A stretch of 32,000 nt of DNA from Candidatus Saccharimonadota bacterium (GTDB lineage: Bacteria; Pseudomonadota; Gammaproteobacteria; Johnevansiales; Johnevansiaceae), in contig NC_018677.1 in assembly GCF_000300075.1 (NCBI RefSeq), positions 319,659 through 351,658 of the forward strand, read 5' to 3'. The notes under the pieces were generated by a model. It did no database searches. It was not told where the DNA came from and saw nothing but the letters and a program-made list of their open reading frames with translations. The position numbers and the translations under genes were made by a program. Positions 1 to 32,000 of this stretch are shown here, in pieces. Numbering within the stretch: the first letter of the stretch is position 1; each line of letters starts with the position of its first letter.

Positions 1-100
1 ATTGTTGATTGTTGATTGTTGTTTGTTAGTTGAGGGTTGAGGGTTGAGGGTTGTAGGTTGTAGGTTGTAGGTTGTAGGTTGTTAGTTGTTAGTTGTTAGT
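1..100. repeat. Cascade of heptamer tandem repeats
   Basis: (ATTGTTG)x3 at 1-21, (TGAGGGT)x3 at 31-51, (TGTAGGT)x4 at 52-79, (TGTTAGT)x3 at 80-100. No C occurs in these arrays. Confidence 0.95.
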
Positions 101-103
101 TGT

Positions 104-186
104 GGTTTAGGTTTGATGGTTAAAAGGTCTTAACAAATTATCTTGTATAGTGGAAGACGATAGTAGAGGTTTAGGTTTGATGGTTA
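104..186. repeat. 19-bp exact direct repeat pair, 64-bp period
   Basis: GGTTTAGGTTTGATGGTTA occurs at 104-122 and at 168-186. Confidence 0.9.
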
Positions 187-694
187 GTAAAAAAAAAGTT
201 AGTGGGTTAGTTGTTTAGTTAAAAAGAGGTTGGTGTTTTGTGGTTGTAAAATATAAAATAGTTAATTATTAGTTGTTAGATAGAAGAAAGGTTGTGTAGT
301 AGTATGTGTTGTTGTAAAAAAGTGAAAAACATGTAAAAGAAGAAAACAATAGAAAAAAGTATATAAGAAAATACTTAAAAGATGAAAAAAAAGAACGGTA
401 ATAAATCAGAAAAGAATATATGTATAACATATAAAAAAAGAAAAATAGAACATAGATTAGAACATGGTATATAGGAGATGGCATAAGAATAAACAGATTA
501 CAGAAACAGAAAGGAATAAAAATGTAAACGTAAACAGGAATCATGAATAGTTAGTTAATAGGAAGATATGGGTATGTTATTACTGAATTAAAAATAAAGA
601 ACATTTAAAGAAACATATAAAAATAAATAAGTAAAAATAAACATACACCATAAAACAAAAAAAAACAAACAAAACAGAAAAAAGATAATAAAAT

Positions 695-3244: not shown

Positions 3245-3636
3245 CAACTTTGTCTTATAAACTTTCCTTATTTTACAAATAACTCTTTACCACAACTAAC
3301 CACTATAGAATTTACAGTTACTATTTTTTTACAATTCTATCATCAATTTCTTAAACAACAACCTTCTTTTATAAAAACATCTACTTCAATATTCTTTTAT
3401 ATGTCATACTTCTATATACCCCATATATATCCTATCATACCAATACTTCTTACACACAGCATTTAAACTTAACAACTAACTTTTTATAAGTATAACAAAT
3501 TACATTAAACATTAATCAACCTTCTAAAGCAATAACCATTTAAATTAATGACAAATAAAAAAATCAATGTTTAAAACATACCATCAACCTTTTTAACTTT
3601 TAATATAAAAGCACAAACCTTTTCCATTTTCCTTTT

Positions 3637-3696
3637 CCCTTTCCCTTTCCCTTTCCCTTTCCCTTTCCCTTTCCCTTCCCCTTCCCCTTAATCCCC
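3637..3696. repeat. (CCCTTT)n homopyrimidine microsatellite
   Basis: Ten C3-C4 runs separated by 2-5 nt of mostly T (the last spacer is TTAAT). About 7 perfect CCCTTT units are followed by CCCTT/CCCCTT variants. The minus strand reads (AAAGGG)n. Confidence 0.95.
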
Positions 3697-3750
3697 TTTC
3701 AACCTTTTTATTTTAACCAAAAACCTTTTACCCTTTATTTTTTTTCCAAC

Positions 3751-3943
3751 CTACAACCTACAACCTACTACCTACTACCTACAACCTACAACCACTAAAC
3801 ACTTACCAACAACCAACAACCAACTACCAACTACCAACTACCAACTACCAACAACCTACAACCTACAACCAACAACCAACTACCAACTACCTACAACCTA
3901 CAACCTACAACCTACAACCACTAAACACTAAACACTAAACACC
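3751..3943. repeat. Heptamer satellite arrays (CCTACAA / CCAACAA / CCAACTA / CACTAAA variants)
   Basis: Six units at 3751-3792. At 3806-3917 the blocks are CCAACAAx2, CCAACTAx4, CCAACAAx1, CCTACAAx2, CCAACAAx1, CCAACTAx2, CCTACAAx4. Then (ACACTAA)x3 at 3918-3943. The region is completely G-free. Confidence 0.95.
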
Positions 3944-4035
3944 ATTCAAACCTTACTACTAACATCAACCCATACTATCAGCAAACAATTACCAACCAAC
4001 ACTTACTTCCAACAACTCCTTACATTTACCCATCT

Positions 4036-4093
4036 TCTTTTTTAACTAACATAATCAAGTTTAATCAAACTCTTTTTTAACTAACATAATCAA
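4036..4093. repeat. 23-bp exact direct repeat pair, 35-bp period
   Basis: TCTTTTTTAACTAACATAATCAA occurs at 4036-4058 and at 4071-4093. Confidence 0.9.
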
Positions 4094-4230
4094 TAACTTA
4101 ATTTTAACTATAAAACTACATATTTTTTTGTTTTGTTTTCTAACAACTATTTACCTAACAAACAACCTCTATCTTTCTACTAATTTAACAAAATCTAATA
4201 ACTTAACAACTAAACCAATAATTTTTAACT

Positions 4231-4279
4231 ACCAGCTACCAGCTACCAGCTACCATCAACCATCAACCATCAACCATCT
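4231..4279. repeat. Heptamer array (ACCAGCT)x3 (ACCATCA)x3 ACCATCT
   Basis: Seven contiguous 7-mers read directly from the sequence. Confidence 0.95.
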
Positions 4280-4407
4280 AATTTAATACTACCAACATCT
4301 AACATTTAATAACTTCTACTTATTTCATATTATATATATATACAACTTCTAACATCTAACATCTAATTTTAGCAACATCTAATAACTATTTACTACAAAA
4401 CTACCAA

Positions 4408-4470
4408 CTATCTTTCATATAACTACTATACTATATACTACTATTATCTTTCATATAACTACTATACTAT
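4408..4470. repeat. 27-bp exact direct repeat pair, 36-bp period
   Basis: TATCTTTCATATAACTACTATACTATA occurs at 4408-4434 and at 4444-4470. Confidence 0.9.
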
Positions 4471-4653
4471 AATGTATCAATATAAATCAGTTTATATCTT
4501 AAATAAAATACAACAAATAATGAAGTAACTAATTCAAATACAAAGTTATAACATATAAATACTATATTTAAAATAATATAACTTGGTGCTTTAAACTAAT
4601 AACTACTGTATTACATATTACAAAACATATAAATACAAAGTACAAACAAATTA

Positions 4654-4827
4654 CTAACAACTAACAACTAACAACTAACCTAACACCTAACACCTAACAC
4701 CTCAAACCTAACAACTCTAACCTAACACCTCAAACCTCAAACCTCAAACCTCAAACCTAACAACTCTAACCTCTAACCTCTAACCTCTAACCTAACACCT
4801 AACACCTAACAACTCTAACCTCTAACT
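4654..4827. repeat. Long composite heptamer satellite (CTAACAA, TAACACC, TCAAACC, TCTAACC variants)
   Basis: About 25 contiguous 7-mers in blocks of 1-4 identical units. The stretch 4641-4827 contains no G. Confidence 0.95.
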
Positions 4828-4836
4828 GATAACAAT

Positions 4837-4868
<32 letters not shown>

Positions 4869-5297
4869 ATAACAACTTTAAAGCAAAACTCAAACATCTA
4901 TTAACTAATAACTAACAACTAACAACTAACAATTTACAAATACAAACTATTAAACAAAAAAGCATCAATTAACTAACAACTTTTAATCTATTTTTTTTAA
5001 TCTAACCTCTAATAACAAACATCAAAAACTTTAACTCAAAAATCAACAATACAAAACAGCAAACATAACCATCAACAATACAAACTCTAAACTTTAAACA
5101 AAAATATAACAAATAACACAAAACTGAAAAATACTAGTAGAAAACAACGAAAAAAGAAAACCTAAAAAGCAATAACAAAACACCTAACTGCAACTACAAA
5201 ACTAAAAAACAGCTAACAAACAACAAACAACACATAATATAAAGAGAGATAAACCCAAATATTAGATATAACAACAAAAATATTTGTAATAATATAC

Positions 5298-5394
5298 GAC
5301 CAGTATTAGCGGTAATAAAGTCAGTACCAGCGGTAATATACGACCAGTATTAGCGGTAATAAAGCTCCATAGACCAGTATTAGCGGTAATAAAG
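5298..5394. repeat. Three copies of a 23-bp direct repeat in a mixed-composition island
   Basis: GACCAGTATTAGCGGTAATAAAG occurs at 5298-5320, 5342-5364 and 5372-5394. Copies 1 and 2 also share the upstream AATATAC. Copies 1 and 3 share the downstream TCAGTA. A partial copy CCAGCGGTAATA lies at 5327-5338. Confidence 0.9.
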
Positions 5395-5821
5395 TCAGTA
5401 ATATATGGAGTTGTTTTTTTGAGCCAATTTAAATGAAGAATCTGTACATAAATAATCAGGTAAGTCAAAAAAAGTAAAAATGTAAGTTTGTCCATAATAG
5501 TATTGGTTGACACATTCTATAAAAATACATTAATAAACCACTTGAAAACGATGTAAATGCAAAATCTCTATCACTTACTGCATCGAAAAATTTTTATAAG
5601 ATCAAAACATAGTAGCTTTTTAATTAAGGCACAAATTCAAGTTGAATATGTAGTTACAGCAGATCATATCCTAAAGGTAATATATTTATTATTTTCCGCC
5701 AATCTAAAAATACGTAAATAAGCTCTAAATAGCTTTTAATTTTAAGCTAATACATGATGGCAAAAAGTAATTGTGTGCTGTGATGATTGTAACTGATTTT
5801 ATCCAGTTAATATAGTATAAG

Positions 5822-5856
5822 AATCACTAATCACTAATAGCTAATAGCTAATAGCT
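5822..5856. repeat. Heptamer array (AATCACT)x2 (AATAGCT)x3
   Basis: Read directly from the sequence. Confidence 0.9.
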
Positions 5857-6264
5857 ATTTTTCTTAAAGCTGGTCTTAACTTTAGTTAGTTAATGCATCT
5901 ATTTTTTTTCTTAAATTAAGATGAATAGCTGTAGAAAACAATCACATATATGCATTTTTTTTTCAAAGCTTTCTATTCTTTATTATTTTGCTAAACCACT
6001 TTATATTCTTTCTTAATACAACTTTCAATTACTTTTTATTCCTTTTTTTATACTTTTACTTTCTTTTCAACAACTAACATTTTTCTTATTGTTGTATTTT
6101 TTATATTTACGTTGATATCATACCAATAAATACGAAAATAAAACTTATAGAATTTAACTACGAAATTATCAGTATAAAAATTAAAACAGCTACGTCTAAT
6201 CAGGTTATTTTAACGTGTTCATTTTAAATTTTGCTATATGCTATTAAGTTTATATTATATATAA

Positions 6265-6337
6265 GCCGGAGTAGCTCATATGGTAGAGCACCGCATTCGT
6301 AATGCGAAGGTAATAGGTTCAATTCCTATCTCCGGTA
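6265..6337 (+). tRNA. thrW: tRNA-Thr (anticodon CGU)
   Basis: 73 nt hand-folded cloverleaf. Acceptor GCCGGAG/CTCCGGT, D arm GCTC..GAGC, anticodon loop TTCGTAA, T arm ATAGG-TTCAATT-CCTAT. The anticodon arm GCATTCGTAATGCGAAGGT closely matches E. coli thrW as I recall it. CCA is not encoded. Confidence 0.85.
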
Positions 6338-6343
6338 AATTAA

Positions 6344-7354
6344 TTATATTACTTTTTCATTTGTCAATTCACATTTAAAATACGCGTAATACATAGGAGC
6401 AGCTATTAAACCTGAAAAACCAAATGCTGCATCAAAAAATAACATAGCAAATAATAATTCCCATGCATTTGAGTTAATACGCAAACCTATGATACGAGCA
6501 TTTAAAAAATATTCTAATTTATGAATAGCTATTAAATAAGTAAGTGCTATAACTGCAGTCCACAAAGATACTGAAAGTGATACAATAAAAATCAATATAT
6601 TCGAAATAAGATTTCCTATTAAAGGTATTAACCCCATTATGAATGTAATTAATATTAACGTTTTTGTTAACGGTATATACACATTTAAACAAGGTGCACA
6701 GATTAATAATAAAATAGAACTTAACAATGTATTAACTAAAGATATTTTTAGTTGTGCAAAAACTACGTTATGAAAAGCGTTACTTAAAGTAATAGATCTT
6801 TGTAATAAAGCATAAGTTAACGGAGTAAGTGATTTAATATCAGGAATATCCTGTAAAGCAATTATTGCTCCTAAAATCATACCTGATAATAATGAAAAAC
6901 AAGTATGAATGGCACATCCAAAAACAAATTGAAGTTCGTTTACATGCTTATATATCAATTCATTTATAATTTGACTTAATTCATCTGCACTTTCTGGTAA
7001 ATAAATGACAACACTATGCGGCAATTGATGTCTAGCTTTATCAAAAATTAACATATATCTTTGAATTAAATTATCAGGTGTTTTTATGTCTTGTAAAATA
7101 AAACTAATAACTGTAAAAAAAAATAAACTTAAAATAGTTACTATACTGGCTCCTAATAAAACTACTGAACTTAATCTGGCTTTATTTACTGGGATTAATG
7201 TTTGTAACAAAGGTGTAATTGCCTTAACTAATTCAAATACAAATAAACCAGATAATAAACAAGGTAAAAGATGCAAAGGAAAGATTAATAACAAACCCAT
7301 AAAATAAATTAATAAACTTATAACGGTAGCTCTTGTCAACATATAATTGTTCAT
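6344..7354 (-). CDS. AI-2E family (PerM/UPF0118-like) inner-membrane permease
   Basis: 336 aa, multi-pass hydrophobic protein. The C-terminal half GLIPLIGNLISN...HKLEYFLNARIIGLRINSNAWELLFAML..FGFSGLIAAP fits the family signature (IPxxG ... P+i.g..l.l.P ... G..G..lA.P). The start lies 6 nt after the thrB stop. Confidence 0.65.
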   Translation of the reverse strand: MNNYMLTRATVISLLIYFMGLLLIFPLHLLPCLLSGLFVFELVKAITPLLQTLIPVNKARLSSVVLLGASIVTILSLFFFTVISFILQDIKTPDNLIQRYMLIFDKARHQLPHSVVIYLPESADELSQIINELIYKHVNELQFVFGCAIHTCFSLLSGMILGAIIALQDIPDIKSLTPLTYALLQRSITLSNAFHNVVFAQLKISLVNTLLSSILLLICAPCLNVYIPLTKTLILITFIMGLIPLIGNLISNILIFIVSLSVSLWTAVIALTYLIAIHKLEYFLNARIIGLRINSNAWELLFAMLFFDAAFGFSGLIAAPMYYAYFKCELTNEKVI

Positions 7355-7360
7355 AAAGAT

Positions 7361-8305: not shown

Positions 8306-8312
8306 ATAATAT

Positions 8313-9356: not shown

Positions 9357-9367
9357 TTTATGTTACC

Positions 9368-10141
9368 TTAAAATCTAACAGAAATTCCTTTTTTTGCCAT
9401 ATATTTTTTAGCTTTATCAATTGTATATTCACCAAAATGAAATATACTAGCTGCTAAAACAGCATCTGCTTTACCTGTTTTTATGCCTTCAACAAAATGA
9501 TCTAAATTACCAACTCCTCCTGAAGCTATAATTGGTACGTTAACTCTTTGACTAATAGTTTTAATAAGATTAATATCAAAGCCTCTTTTAGTTCCATCTC
9601 TATCAATGCTAGTAATTAATAATTCACCTGCTCCATATTTAACCATTTTACAGGCCCAATCTATTGCACTAATACCACTATTTTTTCTGCCTCCATAAGT
9701 TAAAACTTCCCAATCTTCTTTTATATTTTTATTTGTTTTTCGTTTGGCATCTATAGCTACTACTATGCATTGACTCCCAAATTTATCAGATGCTTCACGC
9801 ACTATTTTTGGATTTAATACAGCAGCAGTATTTATTGAAATTTTATCAGCTCCTGCATTCAGTAATTCTCTAATGTTCTTACAAGTTTTTATTCCGCCTC
9901 CTACAGTTAATGGTATAAAAATTTCATTTGCTATTTTCTTAACTACTTCTATAGTATTATTTTTTCCACTATAACTTGCTTTTATATCTAATAATGCGAT
10001 TTCATCTGCCTTTTGTTCGTTATAAAACTTAGCAATTTTTAAAGGATCGCCTGCATAACGAGTGTTTTCAAACTTTATACCTTTTACTACTTTTCCACAA
10101 TCAATATCCAAGCATGGAATTATACGTTTAGACAAGCTCAT
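9368..10141 (-). CDS. hisF: Imidazole glycerol phosphate synthase cyclase subunit HisF
   Basis: 257 aa. [18 protein letters not shown]...[20 protein letters not shown], the [10 protein letters not shown] region, ASGG.G. Confidence 0.95.
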
Positions 10142-10887: not shown

Positions 10888-11885
10888 TACTTATCTCTTT
10901 TTTCCATATTTTTCTTAATAACATACCTATTAGAAACTTTTTCTCTCTAATATTGAGTTTACAATACATACTGCTTGACCTTCTTTTACTCTAACTTTCT
11001 TTTACCAATATTTTTTTTCATACACACAACCCTTTTTCCTACTTCTACAACTAGTCTTTCTTCTAACAAATACACTAACAATATTCAACCATTTTTATAC
11101 CCCTACAACCACCACCACCAATACCAACACTTATTTTTACATCCTTTTACCGTTTATATACCCCTTTTACACCAATACCAACCCTTAACTATTACCTCCT
11201 AACCGCTAACCGCAAACACCAACCACTTAACATATATTCTTTTTAACCAAAACTATTAACAACTATCCTCAAACCTATACCTATACGCTTTTTACAATAC
11301 AAGCATTACAACCATCTTTGAATCCTATTCTTTTACCACGAACTAAACAGCTTTAAGACCTATTAACTAAACATATATTGTACCGCCTACTTTTCCTCAT
11401 ACAGCATATTACCTTGTTTTTTTTGTTTTACATTATACAGCCCTTACCACGAACTAACTAGCTAACAAAAATATAATAACTAATAACATACAGCTTAGTT
11501 TAACATCATACATTTCCTCTTAAACACTTCAATTAAAGCACATAACAAATTAGCCACAATTAAACAGAAATCAAATACTATAAAACACAAATCTAATACT
11601 ATAAAACAAGCACATCTGCTAACAACAAACCCACAACACATTTAATCCATTGATCATAAATATAGAAGCATAAACAACAAAACATCAAACCAAAAATCAC
11701 ACAACCCATAAATAAAAACATTATTATCAACAAAACAACATTTAGCCATTACAATTTTCCTATTTTTTTTTAATAATACATAAACAAACTAACAAAATAC
11801 TAAAGACATAAACAACACAAAAACCTTTTTTATTGTCCTTTTTCTTTCATTTAACACCTTTTTCAGCAAACACAATTTCTTTTGC

Positions 11886-11976
11886 CTAACAGCTAACAGC
11901 TAACAGCTAACAGCAAACAGCAAACAGCTAACAGCTAACAGCTAACAACTAACAACTAACAACTAACAACTAACAA
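11886..11976. repeat. Heptamer ladder CTAACAGx4, CAAACAGx2, CTAACAGx2, CTAACAAx5
   Basis: Thirteen contiguous 7-mers. Neighbouring blocks differ by one base. Confidence 0.95.
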
Positions 11977-12702
11977 GCAAATGTTTTTACATACAATATC
12001 TTCTTTTAGTATATATATTCTTTTTTTTATATAACTCCTTTCTGCTTACTGTAAACATTTATCAGCATACACATAACATCTTAATATCTTCCCATTAACA
12101 CCTCTTAACATTTAGATCTATATCTTAACCTTTACTACTTTTTTTTCACTTACTATATAACCTTCTACTTACTTTTCTATAATACTTTAGCCTTACTGCC
12201 TATACCTTACAATCTTTAGCATTCCACCATTCTCTTATACTTTTATATAACCTTTCACCTTTTACCTTTATGAACCTACCTTTAGCCTTATCTTCCTGTT
12301 ACCACAGAACCTGCTACAGCAAATACACACCACTTTTTTATTCTACTATCTTCATATAACACTGTTTCCATAACCAATATTTATTAATTATCTTATTAAA
12401 GATTTATACAACTTTTGTTATTAACCAAAATTAAACAATAACTTTTAAACTATTTTCTAAAAACTTAACAAACAATTACTTAGCAAAAAAAAAACACACA
12501 AATTTAACATAAAAACTAATTTGATATAAAAACTGTTTGATAACAACAATAAACAACAATAGCAAATAATTTTAATAACAAAATATATTTAAAAACAATA
12601 AACAAGAACAATTTTTTTTTTAATCAAAACAAGTAAACACCAAGCCACATCTTTAAACTTTTAACACTTAACTACAAATCAAATCACAAAACCTCTAATA
12701 AC

Positions 12703-12789
12703 TAACTACACAAAAACATAAAACACAGCACGTAATATCTAATTACTAACATAACTTTTTAAATTAACTACACAAAAACATAAAACACA
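12703..12789. repeat. 25-bp exact direct repeat pair, 62-bp period
   Basis: TAACTACACAAAAACATAAAACACA occurs at 12703-12727 and at 12765-12789. Confidence 0.9.
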
Positions 12790-13166
12790 TATCTTAACAC
12801 ATAATAACATAAACACAAATATCTAAAGAATATAATTTACTTTTAATTTTTTATTTAGTACATATAACACTTTATACATATCTTATATAAACCTAACATT
12901 AAGCCTACTGCAATTAATATAAGATACCTGTTGTAATAGAATAGACCAACTTTTTACATTACTATTAATAATATAACAACTAATGTACTAACAACATACA
13001 GAGTTTAAGAAGCTAAAAATAAAACAAAAAGTTTAGAATATAGTAAACAGCAGATAAATAAAGCATAATAATTTTGAAGCATAAGTTCAATTAACTTAAT
13101 ACAAAAAAATTAAAAAGATAAAAAGTAACATAATTAGTATTAAACTACAGATTATATTGTTGAACT

Positions 13167-14386: not shown

Positions 14387-14446
14387 ACCCTTCCCTATTC
14401 TATTCTTGTTTTTTTTTTTTATAATTTTATAATTATATCTTCTTTT

Positions 14447-14519
<73 letters not shown>

Positions 14520-14552
14520 CTTTTTTCTTCTCATACTTTTTTTCTTTTTTTT

Positions 14553-14623
14553 TGGGGTATAGCCAAGTGGTAAGGCACCGGTTTTTGGTATCGGCATCCC
14601 AGGTTCAACTCCTGGTACCCCAG
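14553..14623 (+). tRNA. tRNA-Gln (anticodon UUG)
   Basis: 71 nt. TGGGGTA...TACCCCA acceptor stem, anticodon arm CCGGT-TTTTGGT-ATCGG, T arm CCAGG-TTCAACT-CCTGG. Closely parallels E. coli tRNA-Gln (UGGGGUAUCGCCAAG..GGUAAGGCACCGG...). Confidence 0.85.
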
Positions 14624-14629
14624 TATACA

Positions 14630-14702
14630 GCCGATATAGCTCATTTGGTAGAGTATCTGATTTGTAATCAGGTGGTATCAGGTTCGAGTCCTGATATCGG
14701 CA
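14630..14702 (+). tRNA. tRNA-Thr (anticodon UGU)
   Basis: 73 nt. Acceptor GCCGATA/TATCGGC, D arm GCTC-ATTTGGTA-GAGT, anticodon arm TCTGA-TTTGTAA-TCAGG, T arm TCAGG-TTCGAGT-CCTGA. Confidence 0.9.
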
Positions 14703-14718
14703 TTTAAGTAGAGGGAAG

Positions 14719-15088
14719 TGGAGGCGGCGGGGATCGAACCCGCGTCCATAAAATATAAAATGATTAAGTTTCTACATGTTAAGCTTCATCTTTATAATAC
14801 TTGTTAAAAAACCTGATGAGCAAGATTAATTAAGGTAAGTCTTAGTAAAGGTTAACGTTCAATAGTAAAGACAGTAATGAACGATATACTACTCTTTATA
14901 GCTCTTGATTCATTAATTATGGAATAGTAAACATAAAGTTATGAATTTGAATTATGCAGCTAAGCTATAATTCTGAGCACAACTTGTATTTTTGGAATAT
15001 AATAAATATTAACTTTTGATTAACGAGAGAAGAAAAATCTCGACATGCTCTTAAAAATTTTTATTTATGTCGAATCCATAACGCCCCC
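14719..15088 (-). ncRNA. ssrA: tmRNA (SsrA), one-piece, about 370 nt
   Basis: On the minus strand the 5' end is GGGGGCGTTATGGATTCGAC...GAGCATGTCGAG. The 3' end is GGACGCGGGTTCGATCCCCGCCGCCTCCA, a tRNA-Ala-like T arm and acceptor with a G3:U pair. The internal tag ORF GCT CAG AAT TAT AGC TTA GCT GCA TAA (plus-strand coordinates 14952-14978) gives (A)QNYSLAA. CCA is not encoded. Confidence 0.9.
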
Positions 15089-15297
15089 AGTAATATTATA
15101 CTAATTAAACTTATTATCTATGTCAAATCAAACAAAACATTGTTTATATAGTCGCTGTGTTTATATTTGTTAGTTTTTTTGTTTGTTAATATCTTTTGTT
15201 TAAAGATAATTAATGTTTGTTAATTAGAAAAGAAAATGTGTGTGTTATATAAAAGGAAAAGAATGGTCTATATAATAGAAAGAAAAAAGTTTAGAAT

Positions 15298-17235: not shown

Positions 17236-17696
17236 TGTTTTTTCAAATCCTTGTTTTTTTTTTTGACTGTACTTTATGTTGTATTTTATATTTATTTTGT
17301 TTGTGATCCTTTTTTGTCCTTATGTTTTATAATTAATACATTTGTTTTTAGCTTTTTGATATTTATGTACTTTTCTGCCTTTTTTTGTTTTTTGCTCTCA
17401 CTTCATGCTTAACAGTTACTGTGCTTAGCTCAATGCTTCATATAAACTTTGTATTTATGTATTTAGAGATTAAAATATGTGTTTGTTGTTAGATGAGAAA
17501 TGTAATTTAGTAAAAAGTTGAGTGTTGTTAGAGGTTGAATAAATGAGTGTTTAGATTGTAGAATTAGATTGTTGTTAAAAGTATTAAGTTTTAAGATAAA
17601 AGATTAAAGTTTTGAGAAAGTAGATTGTAGATTATAGATTAGAGTGTTTAGTTTAGATTAAAGTTTTTATGTTTAGAGGTTATATTAAAATGTTTA

Positions 17697-17746
<50 letters not shown>

Positions 17747-18092
17747 GTTTTTTATTTTGTGGTTAGAGGTTATTTTGGTATTTTGTGTTTATCTTATTTT
17801 GCTGATAGTTGTTATAATGTTGTTTGTTGCTTAAAAGTTTTTAGAATTTATGTTTTAGAGGTTGTTATTCTAACATATAATTTGTATTATCACTATTTAG
17901 TTTAAGTTTGTACATTTTTTGTTTTTTTGTTTTTTTGTTAGATGTTGATTTTTATGTTGTTAGATGTTAATAAATTAATGGTTTATTTAGTGTTTGTTAG
18001 ATGTTTATTTGTTAGTTGAGAAGAGGTTGTAGTTTAGAGTTTTATTTTTAAGAGGTGTTTGTTAGAGGTTGGTTAAAAGATTAAATATTAAA

Positions 18093-18162
18093 GATTTTAG
18101 ATTTTAGATTTTAGCTTTTAGCTTTTAGCTGTTAGCTGTTAGCTGTTTGCTGTTTGCTGTTT
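18093..18162. repeat. Heptamer single-substitution ladder GATTTTAx3, GCTTTTAx2, GCTGTTAx2, GCTGTTTx3
   Basis: Ten contiguous 7-mers. Each block differs from the previous block by exactly one base. Confidence 0.95.
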
Positions 18163-18180
18163 GAGGTTGTATAAAAGAGG

Positions 18181-18222
18181 TTATCTGTTATCTGTTAGTA
18201 GTTAGTAGTTAGTAGTTAGTAG
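18181..18222. repeat. Heptamer array (TTATCTG)x2 (TTAGTAG)x4
   Basis: Read directly from the sequence. Confidence 0.95.
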
Positions 18223-19466
18223 ATGTTATCTGTTAGAGGTTATGTTTTGTGGTTAGAGGAGGTTTTTTGCTTAAATTATTAATTAGATGTTTAAGGCTTG
18301 TAGCTTGTAGGTTAGAGTTGTTAGGTTAGAGGTTAGTTGTTAGAGTTGTTAGTTGTTAGGTTTGATGTTTCTTTTTGTTTAGAGTTTTTAGGCTTGTAGG
18401 TTACTTTGATGTTGTAGTTTAGAGGTTTATTTAATTAAAATGGTTGCTTTGATTGTTTGTTATTGATTATTTATTAGATGTTTGCTTAAAAGATATTGTA
18501 GTTTAGAGGTTATTTGTTTAGAGGTTAGAATTATAATGGTTGCTTAAATTGTTTATTAGAGGTTGTTTATGTTTGTTGCTTAACTTGTTTTTTATTAATT
18601 ATAAGTTAGAAGTTAGAAGTTAGATGATAGTTGTTAGAGTATTGTTATCTTGTTCTTGTTGTTAGTTTAGAGTAAATATGTTAGATAATTTAGATCTTGT
18701 TGTTGTTGTTAGTTTAGAGGTTTGCTTATTAGAGCTTTGGTGTGTATGACTTAAAATTATTTAGGTATGGTTCTGTGGTAGAGTGCATTTAAATTTGTTT
18801 GTTATTAATTTTGATAGTTATACGCAATATTAAATTGATAAATAGCTGTTAGTAGTTATGTTAGTCGTTGATATTAGGTGTAGTGTATTTGTGGAAGGTG
18901 TGTATTTAAAGATGTTAGAGTGATTTGCTGTAGTGTTTATAAGGACTTGTAATTGATATAAGGTTTAAAATTGCTAGATAAGAGCTATATATAGGGTATA
19001 AAATAAAAATAAAGAGTTGTATGTATATAAAACTTAAGTAAAAGAAAAAGGAAAAAATTGTTTGATATATGAAAATGGTAATTCATTATACTAAAAAGTT
19101 ATTGGTAAATGTTGTGTAAAAAGGTTTAAGTTGATAGTAGATGAAATGAAAATGGTAGAGCGATAAAAATAGTGTGTTATTTGTATAATTAAAAACAAAG
19201 TAAGTAGGTTGTAAAAGGAAATTGTAGAATAAGGTTTAGGAAAAAAGGATTTTTGTTAAAGGTAAATGCATGTGAATAATGTTTGTTGAAGACTGGTAAG
19301 AGGTTATTTGTTATTAGATAAAATGTTGCAGTATGATTGATATTATTTTGTTGTGTGGTATTAAAGTCATAATGTGATGTAAAAAAAAGTAACTCTAATA
19401 GTTTAGCATAAAAATTGTAATAAATTGAACTATGTTATAAAATAAAAACAAATTTATCTATATAAA

Positions 19467-19472
19467 AAGGAG
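19467..19472 (+). promoter_or_regulatory. Shine-Dalgarno AAGGAG for ilvI
   Basis: AAGGAG lies 7 nt upstream of the GTG start at 19480. Confidence 0.55.
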
Positions 19473-19479
19473 CTAAAAA

Positions 19480-21720: not shown

Positions 21721-22758
<1,038 letters not shown>

Positions 22759-22777
22759 TAAGCATGGAGTTAGTGTA

Positions 22778-23026
22778 ATGGTTAAAATACGGATGACGCG
22801 TTGTGGATGTAAAAATAGGCCATTTTATCAGATTAATGTTAAAGATTCTAGAAGTTCACGTGATGGAAAATTTATTGAAAAAATAGGTTATTATAATCCA
22901 TTAGTTATAAGTGAAAAAAGATTTTGTATAAACAGTAGTAGATTAGGTTATTGGAAAAATAAAGGTGCAAAAATTTCTAATAGGGTTTTATCCTTATTAA
23001 AAAAAAATAAGAAAGACAAAAAGTGA
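22778..23026 (+). CDS. rpsP: 30S ribosomal protein S16
   Basis: 82 aa. MVKIRMTRCGCKNRPFYQI...RDGKFIEKIGYYNP. A GGAG motif lies upstream. Confidence 0.95.
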   Translation: MVKIRMTRCGCKNRPFYQINVKDSRSSRDGKFIEKIGYYNPLVISEKRFCINSSRLGYWKNKGAKISNRVLSLLKKNKKDKK

Positions 23027-23343
23027 ATATAATTATGGGAAGTATAGCTAAGTCTTATGGGGTTAAAGGGTGGATAAAAGTTAACTCTTATACAAATCAA
23101 AGATGTAACATAATAGATTATAGTAGATTGTGGATTTTAGAAATAAAAGGTAAAAATATATATTTTAAAGTAAAGCGTATACGTTTAGTGCATAGATTTT
23201 TTATTGTGCAATTGTATGGAATTAAAACATGTGAAAAAGCTAAAACTCTTATTGGATCTTTAATTAAATTACAAAAAAAATTATTACCTAACTTACAAAA
23301 AGGTGAGTATTATCTGTATCAATTTAAAAATTTAAGAGTTTAA
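23023..23343 (+). CDS. rimM: RimM N-terminal domain only (truncated 16S rRNA processing protein)
   Basis: 106 aa ORF with a GTG start overlapping the rpsP stop. GSIAKSYGVKGWIKV...LP.LQKGEYYLYQFKNL aligns with E. coli RimM residues from about 15 to 115. The ORF stops where the PRC-barrel domain should begin. Confidence 0.6.
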   Translation: MNIIMGSIAKSYGVKGWIKVNSYTNQRCNIIDYSRLWILEIKGKNIYFKVKRIRLVHRFFIVQLYGIKTCEKAKTLIGSLIKLQKKLLPNLQKGEYYLYQFKNLRV

Positions 23344-23505
23344 TATTAAAAATATATAGGAAAGGTACAGTAGATTTTTGTAACAGGTAAGAATTATATT
23401 CTAGTAGTAAAGAATAAAAAATAATATTTATTGACTGCTAGTGTTCTTACTAATGTAAATATAGATAAATTTATACTAGCAATTTCTTATCTGTGAGGGT
23501 CTACT
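23344..23505 (+). pseudogene. rimM: Decayed RimM C-terminal (PRC-barrel) region, in frame with the upstream ORF but carrying further stop codons
   Basis: Reading on in the same frame gives *Y*KYIGKVQ*IFVTGKNYILVVKNKK*YLLTASVLTNVNIDKFILAISYL*GS. This parallels E. coli [21 protein letters not shown]...ERLVPFL...V.KVDL..R.I.V. Including the ORF's own terminator at 23341, there are five in-frame stops: TAA at 23341, 23347 and 23422, TAG at 23371, and TGA at 23494. No frameshift is needed. Confidence 0.7.
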
Positions 23506-23517
23506 ATTAAACAATTT

Positions 23518-23525
23518 AAAAGGAG
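23518..23525 (+). promoter_or_regulatory. Shine-Dalgarno AAAGGAG for rplS
   Basis: AAAGGAG ends 6 nt upstream of the GTG start at 23532. Confidence 0.5.
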
Positions 23526-23531
23526 TGTACA

Positions 23532-23885: not shown

Positions 23886-23898
23886 GGGAATATGAAAA

Positions 23899-25173: not shown

Positions 25174-25203
25174 AGTTTTATGACAAAAAATGGGTGGTAA
25201 ATA

Positions 25204-26589: not shown

Positions 26590-27091
26590 TTTTTTTTTGC
26601 AGTGCTTTTTCTTGGTCTTTTTATTGTAGTACTTCTTTTTTATTTTATAGCTTTAATTCTATGTTTGATATATTAAAGTTTTTATTGTTTCGTTAAATCT
26701 TATTTTAAAAATTTTTCTTATTATTTTTCTTTTTTTAGTACAGCTATTTATCCTATATTTTTTCTTGTTTTTAGATAATTGTTATTTGTATTTTTTTTTA
26801 AAAACTTTTTCTGGTTTGTTCTTCTGTTAAATAATTTATACTGCTATATGAATTAACAATATTGATATTTTATTTTAGATGTTCAACGTTAGTAGTTATT
26901 CTGTTGTTTTTTTTTTGCTTAGATGTTTAGATCTTATGCTTTTATGTTTTTCTGCTGTTAAGTTAAGATTATATACTTAAATTGTGTTAATTATATAGAA
27001 TAGTTATATGTCTTTTAAGTTTTCCATTATATTTTAGTTTTTTATTCTTTGTTTGTTGTAAGCTGTTATTTTTTAGAGTTTAGAATATGTT

Positions 27092-27140
27092 GGTCTGAGG
27101 TCTGAGGTCTGAGGTTTGTGGTTTGTGGTTTGTGGTTTGT
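27092..27140. repeat. Heptamer array (GGTCTGA)x3 (GGTTTGT)x4
   Basis: Read directly from the sequence. Confidence 0.95.
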
Positions 27141-27311
27141 GTTTTGCGCTTATAGGCAGTTAATGTGTTAGGTGTTTTCTTTTAAATGTTTTGTTGTTTT
27201 TTTTTATATGTTGCTTATTAGATGTTATTTGTTAGTTATTAGAGGTTGCTTTAAGCTTTTAGATGTTGCTTTTGTTGTAGTTGGTATAAGGAACTGATAA
27301 GAGGTAAGAGG

Positions 27312-27497
27312 TTGTTTGTTGTTTGTTGTAGGTAGTTGGTAGTTGGTAGTTGGTTGTTGGTTGTAGGTTGTAGGTTGTAGGTTGTAGGTTGTTGGTTGTT
27401 GGTTGTTGGTAAGAGTAAGAGTAAAGAGGTAAGAGGTAAGAGTTGTTAGGTTAGAGGTTAGAGGTTAGAGGTGTTAGGTGTTAGGTGTTAGGTTAGA
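27312..27497. repeat. Composite satellite: heptamer blocks, a TAAGAG(G) tract, then further heptamer blocks
   Basis: Blocks in order: TTGTTTGx2, TTGTAGGx1, TAGTTGGx3, TTGTTGGx1, TTGTAGGx4, TTGTTGGx3. A (TAAGAG/TAAGAGG) tract follows, then AGGTTAGx3, AGGTGTTx3, AGGTTAG. The region is C-free. Confidence 0.95.
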
Positions 27498-27570
27498 GTG
27501 TATATGTTGTAGTAAAGAGGTTGTATCTGTTAGAGGTTGTTTGTTGAGTGAAAAAAAGAATTGTGAAAGG

Positions 27571-28020: not shown

Positions 28021-28106
28021 TAACGGTTTATTAACTTGAAAATTTCTATAAACGCACTTAAATCTAAGTTTAACATAAAACTAACGAACATGTTAGGAAT
28101 ATAATT

Positions 28107-28634
28107 ATGTTTAAAAAAAAAATATATTCAAATAACAATAAGTTGATTTTTCAAGAACAAAAAATTACAGATAAAATAAAATCACAGATATTAAGTCTTG
28201 AAATAAAACTAGAAAATTATAAAAACGAAAACTTAAAGTCTAAAGCAGAAACAAAAAACTATATACGTAGGGCTGATAAAGAAATAAAAAACACACGTAA
28301 ATATGCAATAGAAACATTTATAAAAGAATTACTACCTGTTATTGATGGGCTAGAAAAAGCTTTTGAACTTATGAAAAAAGAAAAAATAAATAATTATCAC
28401 ATAGAAGGCTTTAAAATGACATTAAACATGCAACTAAATGTTATAAAAAATTTTGGGGTGAATCAAATTAATCCTTTAGGAAAACTTTTTAATCCACTAT
28501 GTCACGAAGCAATTGCGACTGTAAAATCTTTAAATAATAACAACAACTTAATTGTAGATGTTTTACAAAAAGGATATTTTCTTAATGACCGTTTATTACG
28601 TCCTGCTATGGTAATTGTAAGTAAAACAAATTAG
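28107..28634 (+). CDS. grpE: Nucleotide exchange factor GrpE
   Basis: 175 aa. Coiled-coil N-terminus, RRADKEIKNTRKYAIETFIKELLPVIDGLEKA, G...INPLGK.FNP..HEAI, RPAMV.VSK. Confidence 0.9.
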   Translation: MFKKKIYSNNNKLIFQEQKITDKIKSQILSLEIKLENYKNENLKSKAETKNYIRRADKEIKNTRKYAIETFIKELLPVIDGLEKAFELMKKEKINNYHIEGFKMTLNMQLNVIKNFGVNQINPLGKLFNPLCHEAIATVKSLNNNNNLIVDVLQKGYFLNDRLLRPAMVIVSKTN

Positions 28635-29652
28635 TACTTGTATTATAAGCTAGTTGTTGTTGTGTTTTGTAAAAATAATATGGGTTTGCTGTTATTTTTT
28701 GTTTTAAAAGGTGTTTTTTTTGTTAGTTATTTGTTCAACTGTTTATATCGTATATTAGAGTTTTGAGTTTGGATATTGTTAGTTATTTAAATTATAGTAA
28801 TAATATAATCAGTATATGTAAAAGGTTTGAGGTTTGAGGTTTAGTAGCAAGTGTTTAAGGTTTAGTATTTTTTAGAAAATATGTATTTGGTGTTTTGTGT
28901 TATTAAAATGCAGTTATGCAGTTATCTGTTTTGTGATAGCTGTTATAAACTTGTTAGAGGTGTTGTTTATAAACTTATTTAGGTTGTTAAGTTATATATA
29001 TTGTGTAATGTTTACAGTTTATATTATCTAGTAGTTGTTAAAATCAGAAAGTTTTTGCTGTAAAGGTTTAAATTATTTAATAGTTGTACTTTCTTAAAAT
29101 TATTATTATTTTTTGTTTTATGTTTAGTAAAAAACAGTTGTATGAAGTAGAAAGAAGTTTTATTGTTAGGTTGCTAAAAAAAAGGGTTAGAAGTTAGTTA
29201 TTATCAGTTAGTAGTTAAGTGTATAGTTGTTATATGAAAGAGAAAAGAAATAAGTGGAAAGTGTAAGAGGATGTTGTAGGTTGAGTGGTTGCTTAAAAGA
29301 TTAAAGAGGTGTTTTAAAAGATGTTATGGTTTAGAGTTTAGTTATTAGATATTTTTTGTTAGATGTTGTTGTTGTAAATTATCTGTTAGAGTTTGCTTAT
29401 AATAAAGGTTGTATGAAGAAGAAAGAATGTTAGTCTGTTAGATGTTGTTTAAAAAAGAGGATAAAGAGTAGCTTAAAAAGTTATTGTAAAATTAGATGTT
29501 TAATTATTAATTGTTAGATGATATCTGTAAGATGTTAATTTGTTTGTTATTAGAGGTTTATTTATTAGTTGTTGTTTGTTAGAGAATTGGTTGTTGTTAA
29601 ATCAGTTAGAGTTTGTAGGTTTATTAATTAGAGGTTAGTTTTTAAAAGACTT

Positions 29653-29687
29653 TAGATCTTAGATCTTAGATCTTAGATTGTAGATTA
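29653..29687. repeat. Heptamer array (TAGATCT)x3 TAGATTG TAGATTA
   Basis: Read directly from the sequence. Each of the first three units contains the palindrome AGATCT. The TAGATTG/TAGATTA vocabulary also occurs at 17621-17641. Confidence 0.9.
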
Positions 29688-31350
29688 AAATAGTTTTTAT
29701 ATTTTTTGTATTAAAACAAACAAACAGTTAATCATAATAGTTGTATTAAAAAATCTTAAAAAATGTAAAAGTGTTAGTGTTATAAAAAAAAATAAAGAAG
29801 TTGAAGGTAAAAGGTTTGATAAATATAATTGGTTGTACATATTAAAAAAAAATGGGTTATAGGAGTTGTTTAAAGAGGTAGATTCATTAGAAATTTGTAT
29901 TATAAGAGGAGTTGTTATAGATGTTTGTTTTAAATGATGTTGTTTTTTAGATAGTTGTTTAATGAGTGTGTTTTGAAATGAAATTTGTATAATGGAAAAG
30001 GTAAGTTAGAGGAGGAAAAAAGAAGAGTTGTATACAGAAGAGGTAAGACGAAGTTTGATATAAAAAAGTTGTTAGAAGGTGTTTAGTAGGCAAGGAGAAT
30101 AAGACGTAAATTAATAGAAAAAGGTTGTTAGATGTGGTTGGTAAGATGCTTAGTTCAAAGTTTGTAGGTTAAAGTTGATAGGTTAGATGTTGCTTTATAG
30201 GGTTGTGATTTTGGTGGTTGTTTTTTTGAAAGTGATATTTTATTTGTTATGATAAATGGTTAGAGAAGTGTTGTTAAAAGTTAAATAAAAGTTTTTTGTT
30301 AGTGTGTTTGATAAAATATGTTATATGTAAAAGGTTGTATTAAAGAGTAAAGTTATTAGAGGATGGTTAGTAAATGTTGTAAGTTGATAGTTTATTTGTT
30401 AGGTTAGAGGAAAAATTAATTAAGTTGAATGTTGTAAAATAATTGTTAGGTTAGTGTTAAGTAAAAAAATGTTAAAGGTTGTAAGCTAAAAGTGGTTGTT
30501 TGTTAAATGAGGATTGGTTAGTTGTTAGTTGTGAGTTTGTTAATAAGTTAGGTTGCTAAAAAAAAGTTTATAGTTGTAAGTTAGTTGTTTGTTAAAAAAG
30601 GTTATGTGATTATTATGTAAGAGTTGTACGAAAAGTTGTATGGTGTAAGAGAATTATTAGGTTAGAGAAAAAGTTGTAAAGCAATAGAGTAGTATGAAAA
30701 AAAGAGAAAGAAATGCTTGTTAGAGGTAATTGCTTAGATGTTAGTTGTTATTACAAAAAACAAATAAATGTATAAAAGGAAATAAATGGAAGTTGTTAGA
30801 TGATAAAAAGGTTAGTTGTTAGAATAAAATTGTGTTAAGAATTGAGGTAAAATAAACAAGATATGTTGTACAGATAAGAAAGCAAACAAGTTGTAGTATA
30901 ATATGTAGTGATATTAGTTATAATTGTTGGTTAGTAAATTTTTGTGTTATGTCATGACAATTGTTGGTAGTTAGATAATTGTTGTTTGTTAGGTTTTGCT
31001 GTTAATTAAAAGAGTTTGAAAAAGTTAGGTTTTGCTGTTAACTAAGTTACAAAAGTTGTATTTATATATAATAGGGTAGTAGTTAGTATTAAGTTGATAG
31101 ATGTGTTATGTAAATTTGTTATGCTAATACAAAAAAAACAGTTAAGGCAAAAAAAAAAGAGTTATACAAAGGGTGAAGAATGTTAGTTGTTAGTTGTTAG
31201 TTGTGTATTTGTGTTAGGAAATGATGAAAAAAGTTGATTGTTAGTATTAGGAAAAGTTTGTTGTGTAGGTATGTAAGAGGATTGGTGTAGATGTGTAGGT
31301 AGGGGATGCAGTTATGTGTAAGGGTTTTGTGGTAAATGGTTAGTTAAAAA

Positions 31351-31413
31351 CAGTTAGCAGTTAGCAGTTAGCAGTAGCAGTAGGAGTAGGAGTAGGAGTA
31401 GGTGTAGGTGTAA
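31351..31413. repeat. (CAGTTAG)x3 heptamers followed by a hexamer ladder CAGTAGx2, GAGTAGx3, GTGTAG, GTGTAA
   Basis: Read directly from the sequence. The period changes from 7 to 6 at 31372. The hexamer blocks differ by single substitutions. Confidence 0.95.
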
Positions 31414-32000
31414 AGAAATTAGAGGATAGATAATGGTTGTTTAGAATGTAGATAAAAGAGGTTAGGTTTGATTACTTGTAAAGTGTAAGGAGGTATATTA
31501 GGTGTATGTTTGTTAATAAGGGGTTAGTAAGTAGTTAGGTTAAAAAGAATGGTTTGTTGTTGTTAAATAAAGTTGTAGGAAAAGCGAAGTAGAGAGAAGA
31601 AAAAAAGATATAAGCAGTTAGTGGTTGTAGGTAGTTTGGTAAAAAAAGTAAATATATAAAGGTGTGTTGATTAAAGTTCAAAAGATTGGCATTGGAGAGT
31701 AAAAATTATTAGTGTTGTGTGTGTAGATGTTAAAAGCAAAATTTGGTATACAAGAGTATTGCTTATAAGTGAAAAAGAAGTAAAGAGTTGTGTTGAATAG
31801 TTATGCGTAAATGAAGGAGGTTATGTAGGTGTTGTAGTTATGCGTTTAGAAAGTTGTAAAAAGGTTGTTATGTAATGGTAAACAGGTTGTAAAAAGAGGT
31901 TGGTTACGTGAAAAAAGATCAAAGTAAAAAAAAATGGATAGATTAGAATAAAAATAAGTAAAAATTAATATAAAAAAGATTAGATTAAAGAGGTAGTAAA

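Follow-up and report, generated by a model that had tools for sequence, protein, structure and literature searches.

The intergenic spacers in a 32,000-nucleotide stretch of bacterial DNA (RefSeq assembly GCF_000300075.1, contig NC_018677.1, positions 319,659 to 351,658 of the forward strand; hereafter the window) include kilobase-long tracts in which each strand nearly lacks one base. We conclude that these spacers are probably expanded, microsatellite-derived intergenic DNA of Candidatus Portiera aleyrodidarum from the whitefly Bemisia tabaci, grown by the oriented slippage of short units. What sets them apart is not the rarity of the depleted base, which is not unusual for this genome, but a threefold enrichment of the complementary base.

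Organism and composition of the spacers

The window is from Candidatus Portiera aleyrodidarum of the Bemisia tabaci complex, an obligate whitefly symbiont and a gammaproteobacterium derived from the Halomonadaceae. Its IlvI is 87% identical to that of Portiera isolates SiSi and PeMo, and 64-69% identical to those of Halomonadaceae. Exact copies of HisA, GrpE, and MutS are found in CP007563.1, CP016304.1, CP016343.1, CP016327.1, and CM014390.1, all of them Portiera chromosomes from the B. tabaci complex, and alignment to CP016304.1 shows not one substitution across 20.7 kb. Previous work on this symbiont described about 30% intergenic DNA and genome rearrangements (Sloan & Moran 2013, PMC3673631; Santos-Garcia et al. 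2015, 2020). It also described large intergenic regions, a 7-bp spike among tandem repeats and among the indels that distinguish strains, and the loss of dnaQ, dnaN, dnaX, holA, holB, mutL, ruvC, and ssb (Sloan & Moran 2013, PMC3673631). In the SiSi isolate dnaQ is a pseudogene and 40% of the DNA is intergenic (Santos-Garcia et al. 2020, PMC7821994). The present analysis read about 52 kb of the B. tabaci Portiera genome; the losses of dnaQ, mutL, and other repair genes are taken from PMC3673631 and PMC7821994. By our own annotation 42.0% of the window (13,446 bp) is intergenic, in near agreement with the 43% or so estimated in a preliminary description made from the letters of the window.

That description had listed four runs lacking one base on the + strand, and all four are present as reported: G is absent from 3612-3980 (369 bp) and 4641-4827 (187 bp), and C from 27295-27526 (232 bp) and 30194-30485 (292 bp). 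Additional C-free runs occupy 17448-17699 (252 bp) and 17914-18114 (201 bp). When the window was shuffled 200 times by single nucleotides, no G-free run exceeded 93 and no C-free run 98, as against 369 and 292 observed, and the observed runs are 3-6 times the longest shuffle runs. The compositions given for six named spacers also hold, with the minor base at 2.1-4.6% in each. Taken in 400-bp windows, the GC skew of spacers goes as far as -0.97 and +0.91, and that of genes lies between about 0 and +/-0.4. T exceeds A on the G-rich strand, at 41.6% vs 32.1%. An assembly artefact, which the preliminary description had allowed for, is not the source of these tracts. The same spacers occupy the same places in six records that are complete or at chromosome level (CP007563.1, CP016304.1, CM014390.1, CP016343.1, and two JGI contigs), and the spacers recur in four independent Logan run assemblies.

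Repeat units and their turnover

One of the two explanations offered in the preliminary description was repeated slippage expansion of already skewed seeds. It is supported by a heptamer periodicity, by words shared among spacers in one orientation, by whole-unit indels between strains, and by insertion at junctions that are tight in relatives. Tandem Repeats Finder (TRF) reports dozens of period-7 arrays. Pooled over the spacers, identity is 0.445 at lag 7, 0.415 at lag 14, and 0.400 at lag 21, with other lags near 0.35. The lag-7 excess appears in every large spacer and not in coding DNA. About 15 kb hold 22 distinct perfect heptamer units and a single pentamer unit. G is present in all 22 heptamers, at a mean of 2.4 per unit, while C is absent from 15. 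The seven units that do contain C have one each, and several of these stand one position away from a C-free unit, as in AGCTGTT/AGTTGTT and AGGTCTG/AGGTTTG.

The six spacers (Table 1) share a vocabulary on the G-rich strand, GTTGT, GTTAG, TGTTA, and AGGTT, at similar densities; GTTGT, GTTAG, and AGGTT each occur 4-23 times per kb in every one of the six. On that same strand the reverse complements of GTTGT, GTTAG, and AGGTT occur 0-1 times, and that of TGTTA 7 times.

Differences between strains are largely in whole units. Five indels (6, 7, 7, 21, and 1 bp), all in spacers, separate the window from CP016304.1. Between CP007563.1 and its close relative, JGI contig PWF_10001, 6 of 11 indels are multiples of 7, and the count is 8 of 12 for JGI contig PQ2WF_10001; among MED-type records the differences are mostly indels of 7 and 14 bp. 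The segments that are polymorphic in this way contain 28-44% G and 0-5.6% C. Spacer S2 ranges from 864 to 2058 bp among strains and is 2017 bp long in the window. The 864-bp form, in CP016343.1, is without 989 bp (3807-4795), so at least half of S2 is dispensable.

The same junctions in compact relatives, and a parallel in Singhiella

In the compact Portiera genome from Trialeurodes (TV), gene order is dnaJ-dnaK-grpE/smpB-hisB-hisH-hisA-hisF-hisC-thrB-perm-argH-lysA-dapF/nuoN, where a slash, here and below, marks a junction. Portiera TV and one other Portiera-like contig have 14 bp between hisH and hisA, vs 2279 bp in the window; the grpE/dnaK gap is 56 bp in Portiera TV vs 3374 bp in the window, with dnaK starting at 32009. 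PeMo, which is compact and has dnaQ, shows 42 bp at rluD/marC and 3-13 bp at ilvH/ilvC, depending on the ilvH start codon. At marC/ilvI the gap is 97 bp in both PeMo and SiSi, vs 2.2 kb in B. tabaci Portiera. SiSi, with its dnaQ pseudogene, instead has 6.7 kb at rluD/marC and 3.5 kb at ilvH/ilvC. Because the expanded junctions differ between the two lineages, expansion has been independent in the Portiera of B. tabaci and of Singhiella. A scan of 241 million metagenome records with the 14-mer GGTTGTAGGTTGTA, which proved too short, gave no Portiera contig among the matches listed.

Three spacers of the SiSi isolate (host Singhiella simplex; record L001, 2482-9243, 12235-15706, and 17258-21734) contain 22.5-22.7% G, 2.3-3.9% C, and about 50% T, with skews between +0.71 and +0.81 and a longest C-free run of 393 bp. 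Their period is 5, not 7: identity is 0.55 at lag 5 and 0.51 at lag 10, and there are 25 perfect pentamer units (AATGT x55, ATGTT x37, GTGTT x35, and others) and no heptamer units. Two lineages with unit lengths of 7 and 5 thus converge on one strand composition. TRF returned 191 rows in 21.7 kb of SiSi, while the published count for the whole SiSi genome is 3 tandem repeats (Santos-Garcia et al. 2020, Table 1, PMC7821994); the lower published number presumably reflects stricter criteria.

Neutral sites, point mutation, and gene decay

The preliminary description had also proposed an extremely strand-asymmetric mutation process, such as C deamination with poor uracil repair, with the spacers as neutral DNA at its equilibrium. 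This reading fails against neutral sites of the same genome, and we regard it as very improbable. Fourfold-degenerate sites of the window genes have a GC content of 13.5%, with 8.5% G and 5.0% C on the coding strand and a skew there of only +0.17 to +0.31. The six spacers pooled on their G-rich strand have 22.8% of the major base, an excess with a chi-square p of 2e-46, and 3.56% of the minor base. The comparison of the depleted base between spacers and synonymous sites, proposed at the outset as a way to refute the idea, comes out largely against it (3.56% vs 5.02%). Spacer GC, at 22-39%, exceeds the neutral 13.5%. Deamination of C lowers C and cannot triple G, which leaves the threefold G surplus unexplained by that process. 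The argH remnant beside S2, which is neutrally decaying DNA of this very genome and serves as an internal control, is not three-letter DNA (G 12.7%, C 13.4%, skew -0.02), and near-identical strains differ by indels, not by substitutions. Some facts do point toward a substitution bias. T exceeds A on the G-rich strand in SiSi (51/24%) as it does in B. tabaci Portiera, fourfold sites have a moderate skew of the same sign, up to +0.63 in the ilv region of PeMo (G 9.3%, C 2.1%), and the mismatch repair gene mutL has been lost (PMC3673631). In the his region of Portiera TV, fourfold sites are nearly unskewed (34 G vs 35 C) and their GC content is about 6%. The value in B. tabaci Portiera is over double this, which suggests a mutation spectrum shifted after the loss of repair genes. 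Polarised substitutions among eight aligned strains number 15 clean cases in spacers and 9 in annotated genes, too few for a spectrum, and raw mismatch counts in spacers are inflated by misalignment near indels.

Decay of former genes is another conceivable origin, and Zhu et al. 2019 (PMC6699477) suggested that decayed pseudogenes lie in the intergenic spacers. S2 does occupy the ancestral place of the 3' part of argH, lysA, and dapF, all lost here, and a fragment of argH survives beside it. However, S2 is the only spacer of the window that replaces lost genes. Four others fill junctions that are free of genes in compact relatives (hisH/hisA, grpE/dnaK, marC/ilvI, and ilvH/ilvC of SiSi), tblastn with the lost genes found no homology inside three-letter DNA, S2 included, and the sole real remnant, argH, is unskewed. 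An origin of the spacers as decayed pseudogenes is accordingly most unlikely.

Probable expansion by slippage, and what weighs against it

Slippage and local duplication of short units, 7 bp long in the Portiera of B. tabaci and 5 bp long in that of Singhiella, probably inflated tiny ancestral gaps (13-97 bp) and the places of deleted genes into spacers of 1-3.4 kb. The gain and loss of units would be much faster than substitution, and composition would be set by the units that are copied rather than by mutational equilibrium. These units belong to one G/T-rich, nearly C-free family of words (GGTTGTA, AGTTGTT, AGGTTAG, and relatives), with one orientation per gene block, and one strand has about 23% G and 3-4% C as the outcome. 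A genome biased toward A and T would rarely create C, and the strand could stay near three letters even where arrays have been scrambled. Slippage is the physical mechanism we favor, and its probable connection to the loss of dnaQ, mutL, and other genes of replication and repair comes from published work.

Several observations weigh against this account. The share of clear tandem arrays in a spacer is only 6-42%, and skew is nearly as strong outside them: the least periodic quartile of 105-bp windows has 24.0% G and 3.2% C, the most periodic quartile 27.8% G and 2.8% C. The G-richness of the amplified units (2.4 G per 7 bp, vs 8.5% G at neutral sites) is left unexplained, as is the choice of a 7-bp step in one lineage and a 5-bp step in the other. 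The seeds are a further difficulty, as skewed neutral DNA could have supplied C-free seeds in the ilv region, judging by the PeMo values, but not in the his region, judging by those of Portiera TV. An origin of arrays followed by their decay through point mutation can be rejected, since composition shows no trend with periodicity in B. tabaci Portiera or in SiSi. We infer instead that ongoing small duplications and deletions of G-rich material, variable in length, maintain the composition, in the manner known as cryptic simplicity. In S6 only about 6% is clear tandem array, and the remainder consists of cryptically simple GTTGT, GTTAG, and AGGTT words.

Strand polarity follows gene blocks

We mapped skew along some 52 kb, extending the window on both sides; skews are given in window orientation. 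From the left, the compact block crtB-crtI-gatB-gatA (-) is followed by hisG-rplM-rpsI-rsmH (+), a 2.0-kb spacer at +0.70 (complete in overlapping record L214, 8002-10000), mutS (+), and a 2.0-kb spacer at -0.85. Next are the argH remnant and perm-thrB-hisC-hisF-hisA (-), a 2.3-kb spacer at -0.65, hisH-hisB (-), then tRNAs, tmRNA, rluD, and marC, 2.2 kb at +0.67, the ilvI...thrC block (+), 1.0 kb at +0.62, and smpB (-). On the right are grpE (+), 3.4 kb at +0.80, dnaK-dnaJ (+), 1.0 kb of positive and then 0.4 kb of negative skew, and nuoN-nuoM (-). The G-rich strand is the sense strand of its own gene block in all 8 large spacer segments of B. tabaci Portiera and in all 3 SiSi spacers. Lone genes of contrary orientation, smpB and marC, leave the polarity of the spacers unchanged. 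Within the convergent dnaJ/nuoN spacer, skew flips from +0.95 to -0.76 at about position 17900 of record L211, which is an inversion breakpoint relative to the Trialeurodes order, and the switches at tmRNA/rluD and mutS/perm are also rearrangement breakpoints.

There are at least four polarity switches in these 52 kb: at mutS, at 14.4-15.3 kb, at dnaJ/nuoN, and, judged by gene orientation, at the boundary between the crt/gat block and hisG. Sign changes of GC skew are thus not confined to the replication origin and terminus, and present-day replication direction is not the determinant of polarity. A replication origin at the divergent grpE/smpB junction was considered because public records start at dnaK, and is not proposed here because fourfold sites of Portiera TV show no skew flip there and pnp, upstream, is on the other strand. 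Skew already present in seeds of ancestral neutral DNA is plausible for the ilv region and contradicted for the his region; as neutral DNA of the his region is unskewed, seed skew alone is not enough to explain polarity. The candidates for its cause are inheritance through inversions, a transcription-linked process, and selection through the retained termination factor Rho.

Generation itself could be directional. Expansion might proceed one way relative to replication or transcription, with G/T-rich units growing in one orientation, for example through R-loops of G-rich RNA or by slippage that differs between the leading and the lagging strand in a crippled replisome that is without clamp, clamp loader, proofreading subunit, and single-stranded DNA-binding protein; later inversions would carry polarity along with the blocks. 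The coherence of polarity within blocks, the flip inside the convergent dnaJ/nuoN spacer, and the adjacent divergent blocks grpE-dnaKJ and his, each with sense-G-rich spacers, are consistent with this proposal. So is the fact that both unit lengths arrive at 22-23% G and 2-4% C, which speaks for a bias of the process rather than for a single founder motif. The number of switches, on the other hand, excludes current replication direction, and DNA hairpins offer no usable asymmetry between strands (-0.6 vs -0.7 kcal/mol). Units bearing C also expand on the nominally G-rich strand, as do, in SiSi, units that have C and no G (AACTT x21, AAAAC x15). We hold directional generation as a tentative idea, with the odds somewhat against it. 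A version driven by hairpins was discarded, since the array at 3700-3980 folds, as DNA, at about 0 kcal/mol on each strand.

Transcription offers a further route. Rho loads on C-rich, G-poor, unstructured, untranslated RNA. The strand of a spacer that runs in the sense of its block has 0.4-2.1 YC dimers per 78 nt, with C exceeding G in 0-6.5% of 78-nt windows; for the opposite strand these values are 5.9-8.6 and 89-100%, and for the sense strands of genes 3.2 and 21.6%. Folded as RNA, the 292-nt tract at 30194-30485 is unstructured on its C/A/U strand (-0.34 kcal/mol); on the G/U/A strand, pairing of G with U and of A with U brings it to -31.4 kcal/mol, a value that does not surpass those of shuffles (z = -0.78). 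The preliminary remark that the spacers are unlikely to encode structured RNAs holds. Its companion remark on intrinsic terminators is borne out, with none in the spacers and 1 site in 20 kb vs 4.6 expected, that one inside rluD. A scan for sigma-70-like promoters found 122 where 129 were expected, a chance level, and is uninformative in DNA this rich in A and T.

Slippage could then be the source of the DNA, and Rho-mediated polarity the agent that selects the orientation with nearly C-free sense RNA. Polymerase would read through to downstream genes, and C-rich antisense RNA would be terminated. B. tabaci Portiera retains rho, nusA, and nusG, on heating induces dnaK 6.3-fold, dnaJ 5.3-fold, and grpE 4.8-fold, and has a single sigma-32 site for grpE-dnaK-dnaJ, upstream of grpE (Zhu et al. 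2019, PMC6699477). With the only such site upstream of grpE and dnaK induced by heat, read-through of the 3.4-kb spacer S6 is implied, and the sense RNA of S6 holds 2.7% C. At least the upstream gene leads into the spacer on its own strand at six junctions (rsmH-mutS, hisH-hisA, grpE-dnaK, the dnaJ side of dnaJ/nuoN, and, in SiSi, ilvH-ilvC and downstream of rimM), and at all six the G-rich strand is the sense strand of that gene (binomial p = 0.03). The contrast between spacer strands in YC dimers and in C over G, and the unstructured C/A/U strand, agree with such selection. However, dnaK may have an unrecognised promoter, as heat also induces ftsH and hslV, for which no sigma-32 site has been recognised (Zhu et al. 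2019, PMC6699477). Selection through Rho also explains neither the equal purity of convergent and divergent spacers nor why units are rich in G rather than plain A/T, and the six junctions do not separate it from polarity inherited with gene blocks or from a generator coupled to transcription. We judge it unlikely. The general proposition that polarity is enforced or generated either by transcription, with in-operon DNA made proof against Rho and antisense silenced, or by a directional crippled replisome with a step of 5 or 7 bp, is one to which we likewise give only a minor share of our belief.

Features of the window

Coordinates are collected in Table 1. The window encodes tmRNA, four tRNAs, and proteins of the genes mutS (intact), thrB-hisC-hisF-hisA and, past a spacer, hisH-hisB, then rluD, marC, ilvI-ilvH-ilvC-rpsP-rimM-rplS-hom-thrC, smpB, and grpE.

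Table 1. Spacers and related features of the window. The strand column gives the G-rich strand for spacers and the feature strand otherwise.
Feature	Position	Strand	Composition	Arrays and remarks
3' part of the ~2.0-kb rsmH-mutS spacer	1..694	+	G 21.8%, C 4.3%	Heptamer arrays ATTGTTG, GTTGAGG, GGTTGTA at 1-113
S2, mutS (+) to argH remnant/perm operon (-)	3245..5261	-	+ strand G 2.1%, C 25.5%	(TTTCCC)n 3618-3689; CAACCTA family 3747-3942; CTACCAT 4229-4280; ACTAACA/CCTAACA family 4641-4932; (AAC)n 4831-4868
argH pseudogene remnant	5404..5867	-		tblastn with Portiera TV ArgH, E 1.5e-15, three frameshifted pieces
S3, within the his operon, hisH to hisA	10888..13166	- (operon sense)	+ strand G 4.6%, C 21.5%	(CTAACAG)n 11886-11975
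Polarity switch, - block to + block	14387..15297			tRNA cluster, tmRNA, short spacers; rearrangement breakpoint tmRNA/rluD vs ancestral order
S4, marC (-) to ilvI (+)	17236..19479	+	G 21.3%, C 4.2%	Heptamer arrays GGCTAGT, GTGGTTT, TTTTAGC, TTAGCTG, GTTAGTA, TTAGAAG
S5, thrC (+) to smpB (-), rearrangement junction	26590..27570	+	G 22.3%, C 5.2%	TGGTTTG 27091-27146; GGTTGTT/AGAGGTT/AGGTGTT family 27310-27498
Sigma-32-like -35 element CTTGAAA	28035..28041	+		Upstream of grpE; only one in 27.9-32 kb
S6, grpE to dnaK	28635..32000, continuing to 32008	+	G 23.5%, C 2.7%	

The argH remnant is about 45% identical to Portiera TV ArgH (residues 138-291), where intact neighbours are about 80% identical to theirs. 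It is surrounded by an unskewed stretch, 5262-6264. No Pfam family matches the open reading frame (ORF) at 5262-5513, which runs into the remnant at its upstream end (about 5404-5513) and contains a 23-bp tandem repeat of 3.2 copies at 5290-5361. Within S2, public gene calls include an ORF of 80-81 aa at about 3600-3840 (-), also seen in records L081 (16976-17218), L084 (16980-17225), and L214 (12899-13141). It falls wholly within the (TTTCCC)n and (CAACCTA)n arrays, in a region whose + strand has 35% C and 1.2% G, and its length varies with repeat copy number; this low-complexity ORF is almost certainly spurious. Where two spacers differ in polarity, their arrays of one unit family make up long, imperfect inverted repeats, as between 3819-3934 and 27295-27410 (116 nt, 84% complementarity), and a second pair of the same unit family joins 2-108 and 3811-3917. 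Such repeats are potential substrates for the inversions of this genome.

A cluster of tRNA-Phe/Gln/Thr genes and tmRNA (14447-15088) coincides exactly with the polarity switch. Compared with gene order in Trialeurodes, smpB is parted from tmRNA by an inserted 12-kb block, rluD...thrC; S5 is listed as a rearrangement junction on the basis that prfB follows thrC in PeMo. The rimM gene at 23023-23531 is truncated, with 106 aa matching positions 2-105 of a 166-position profile. An unskewed 188-bp gap separates rimM from rplS, the usual place of trmD, and the gap between rpsP and rplS in PeMo is only 117 bp. In CP016343.1, from a China 1 strain, hisF is called at 238 aa vs 257 (window 9368-10141) and rluD at 244 aa vs 309 (window 15298-16227), and marC is not among the called genes; these may be strain-specific truncations or sequencing errors. 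A tRNA-Thr(CGU) at 6265-6337 (+) abuts the stop of a transporter gene on the - strand. The membrane protein of 336 aa at 6344-7354 (-) has no NCBIfam match and scores 31.6 bits against the Pfam AI-2E transporter family, below the gathering score of 34.3; it is 80% identical to its Portiera TV counterpart.

Significance

Ancient endosymbiont genomes are as a rule compact and static, and the textbook exception is the Portiera of B. tabaci. Our analysis would make its spacers a distinct, self-propagating class of sequence, with a strict strand polarity tied to gene orientation, rather than DNA at equilibrium, and a sister lineage has reached a like composition with another unit length. The retention of Rho, together with a heat-inducible dnaK situated 3.4 kb past the only recognisable sigma-32 promoter, would provide a concrete reason for a single tolerated orientation. 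If polarity is selected or mechanistically directional, then the growth of bacterial non-coding DNA would be seen to be limited by transcription termination or by the make-up of the replisome; if transcription enforces polarity or a directional replisome produces it, this would be a previously undescribed rule for the de novo growth of non-coding DNA in a bacterial genome. If polarity is only inherited through inversions, it becomes a descriptive footnote to a known phenomenon.

Comparison with known systems

The organism and its repeat-expanded spacers are already known. The Portiera regions of Sloan & Moran 2012/2013 and of Santos-Garcia et al. 2012/2015/2020 are the same DNA from the same organism, and share with our description large size, the 7-bp spike in repeats and indels, the lack of a deletion bias, and the association with rearrangement and with the loss of dnaQ and mutL. 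The word "skew" is not used in PMC3673631, PMC7821994, or PMC6699477, and B. tabaci Portiera has been described as having no clear genome-wide GC-skew pattern (PMC5322561). In the literature searched we found no description of the extreme local skew and near-three-letter composition, of a gene-relative sense polarity that flips at breakpoints, of enrichment rather than depletion of a base, or of the 5-bp periodicity of the Singhiella analogue. Other ancient insect symbionts, Tremblaya princeps, Hodgkinia, and Uzinura, likewise show low coding density and genome instability; Table 1 of Santos-Garcia et al. 2020 gives 11 tandem repeats for Uzinura and none for Tremblaya or for either Hodgkinia genome.

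Telomeric repeats (TTAGG of insects, TTTAGGG of plants) resemble the spacers in having units of 5-8 bp and a G/T-rich, C-free strand, and some Portiera units contain TTAGG (AGGTTAG, CCTAACA), a resemblance only. The chromosome of B. tabaci Portiera has been published as a circular map (PMC3673631). Telomerase-type repeats can be rejected, as there are 22 perfect units in about 15 kb, placed between genes inside complete single-record chromosomes. The spacers also differ from telomeres in their internal position, their dozens of unit variants, the absence of telomerase, and the lack of evidence for addition at ends.

The short tandemly repeated repetitive (STRR) sequences of heterocystous cyanobacteria, heptanucleotide repeats reportedly described by Mazel and colleagues in 1990, are likewise 7-bp tandem units in bacterial intergenic DNA. 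Their units include CCCCAGT, TTGGTCA, and CAACAGT. Neither CCCCAGT nor TTGGTCA, rotated or read on the complementary strand, matches any of the perfect heptamer units here; AGCTGTT, rotated and read on the opposite strand, gives CAACAGC (the CTAACAG array), one base from CAACAGT. We do not place the spacers among STRR sequences, as Portiera is a gammaproteobacterium and the units differ in sequence. STRR arrays are also short and form no kilobase three-letter tracts, and we know of no link of STRR sequences to lost repair genes.

The GC skew that bacterial replication and transcription produce, reportedly treated by Lobry in 1996 and by Francino and Ochman, has the same sign as that of the spacers, with G and T raised on the sense, usually leading, strand. 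Here, however, the skew is 0.65-0.97 vs 0.17-0.31 at neutral sites, arises from G enrichment and not from C loss, and changes sign several times in 52 kb, only in DNA derived from repeats. Cryptic simplicity and simple sequence generated by slippage, which Tautz and colleagues in 1986 and Levinson and Gutman in 1987 are said to have described, are similar in that the spacers over-use a few short, scrambled motifs beside pure arrays and turn over units faster than they accumulate substitutions. The Portiera spacers differ in their kilobase scale, in making up about 30-40% of a bacterial genome, in a strict unit length specific to each lineage, and in a polarity that is near-absolute.

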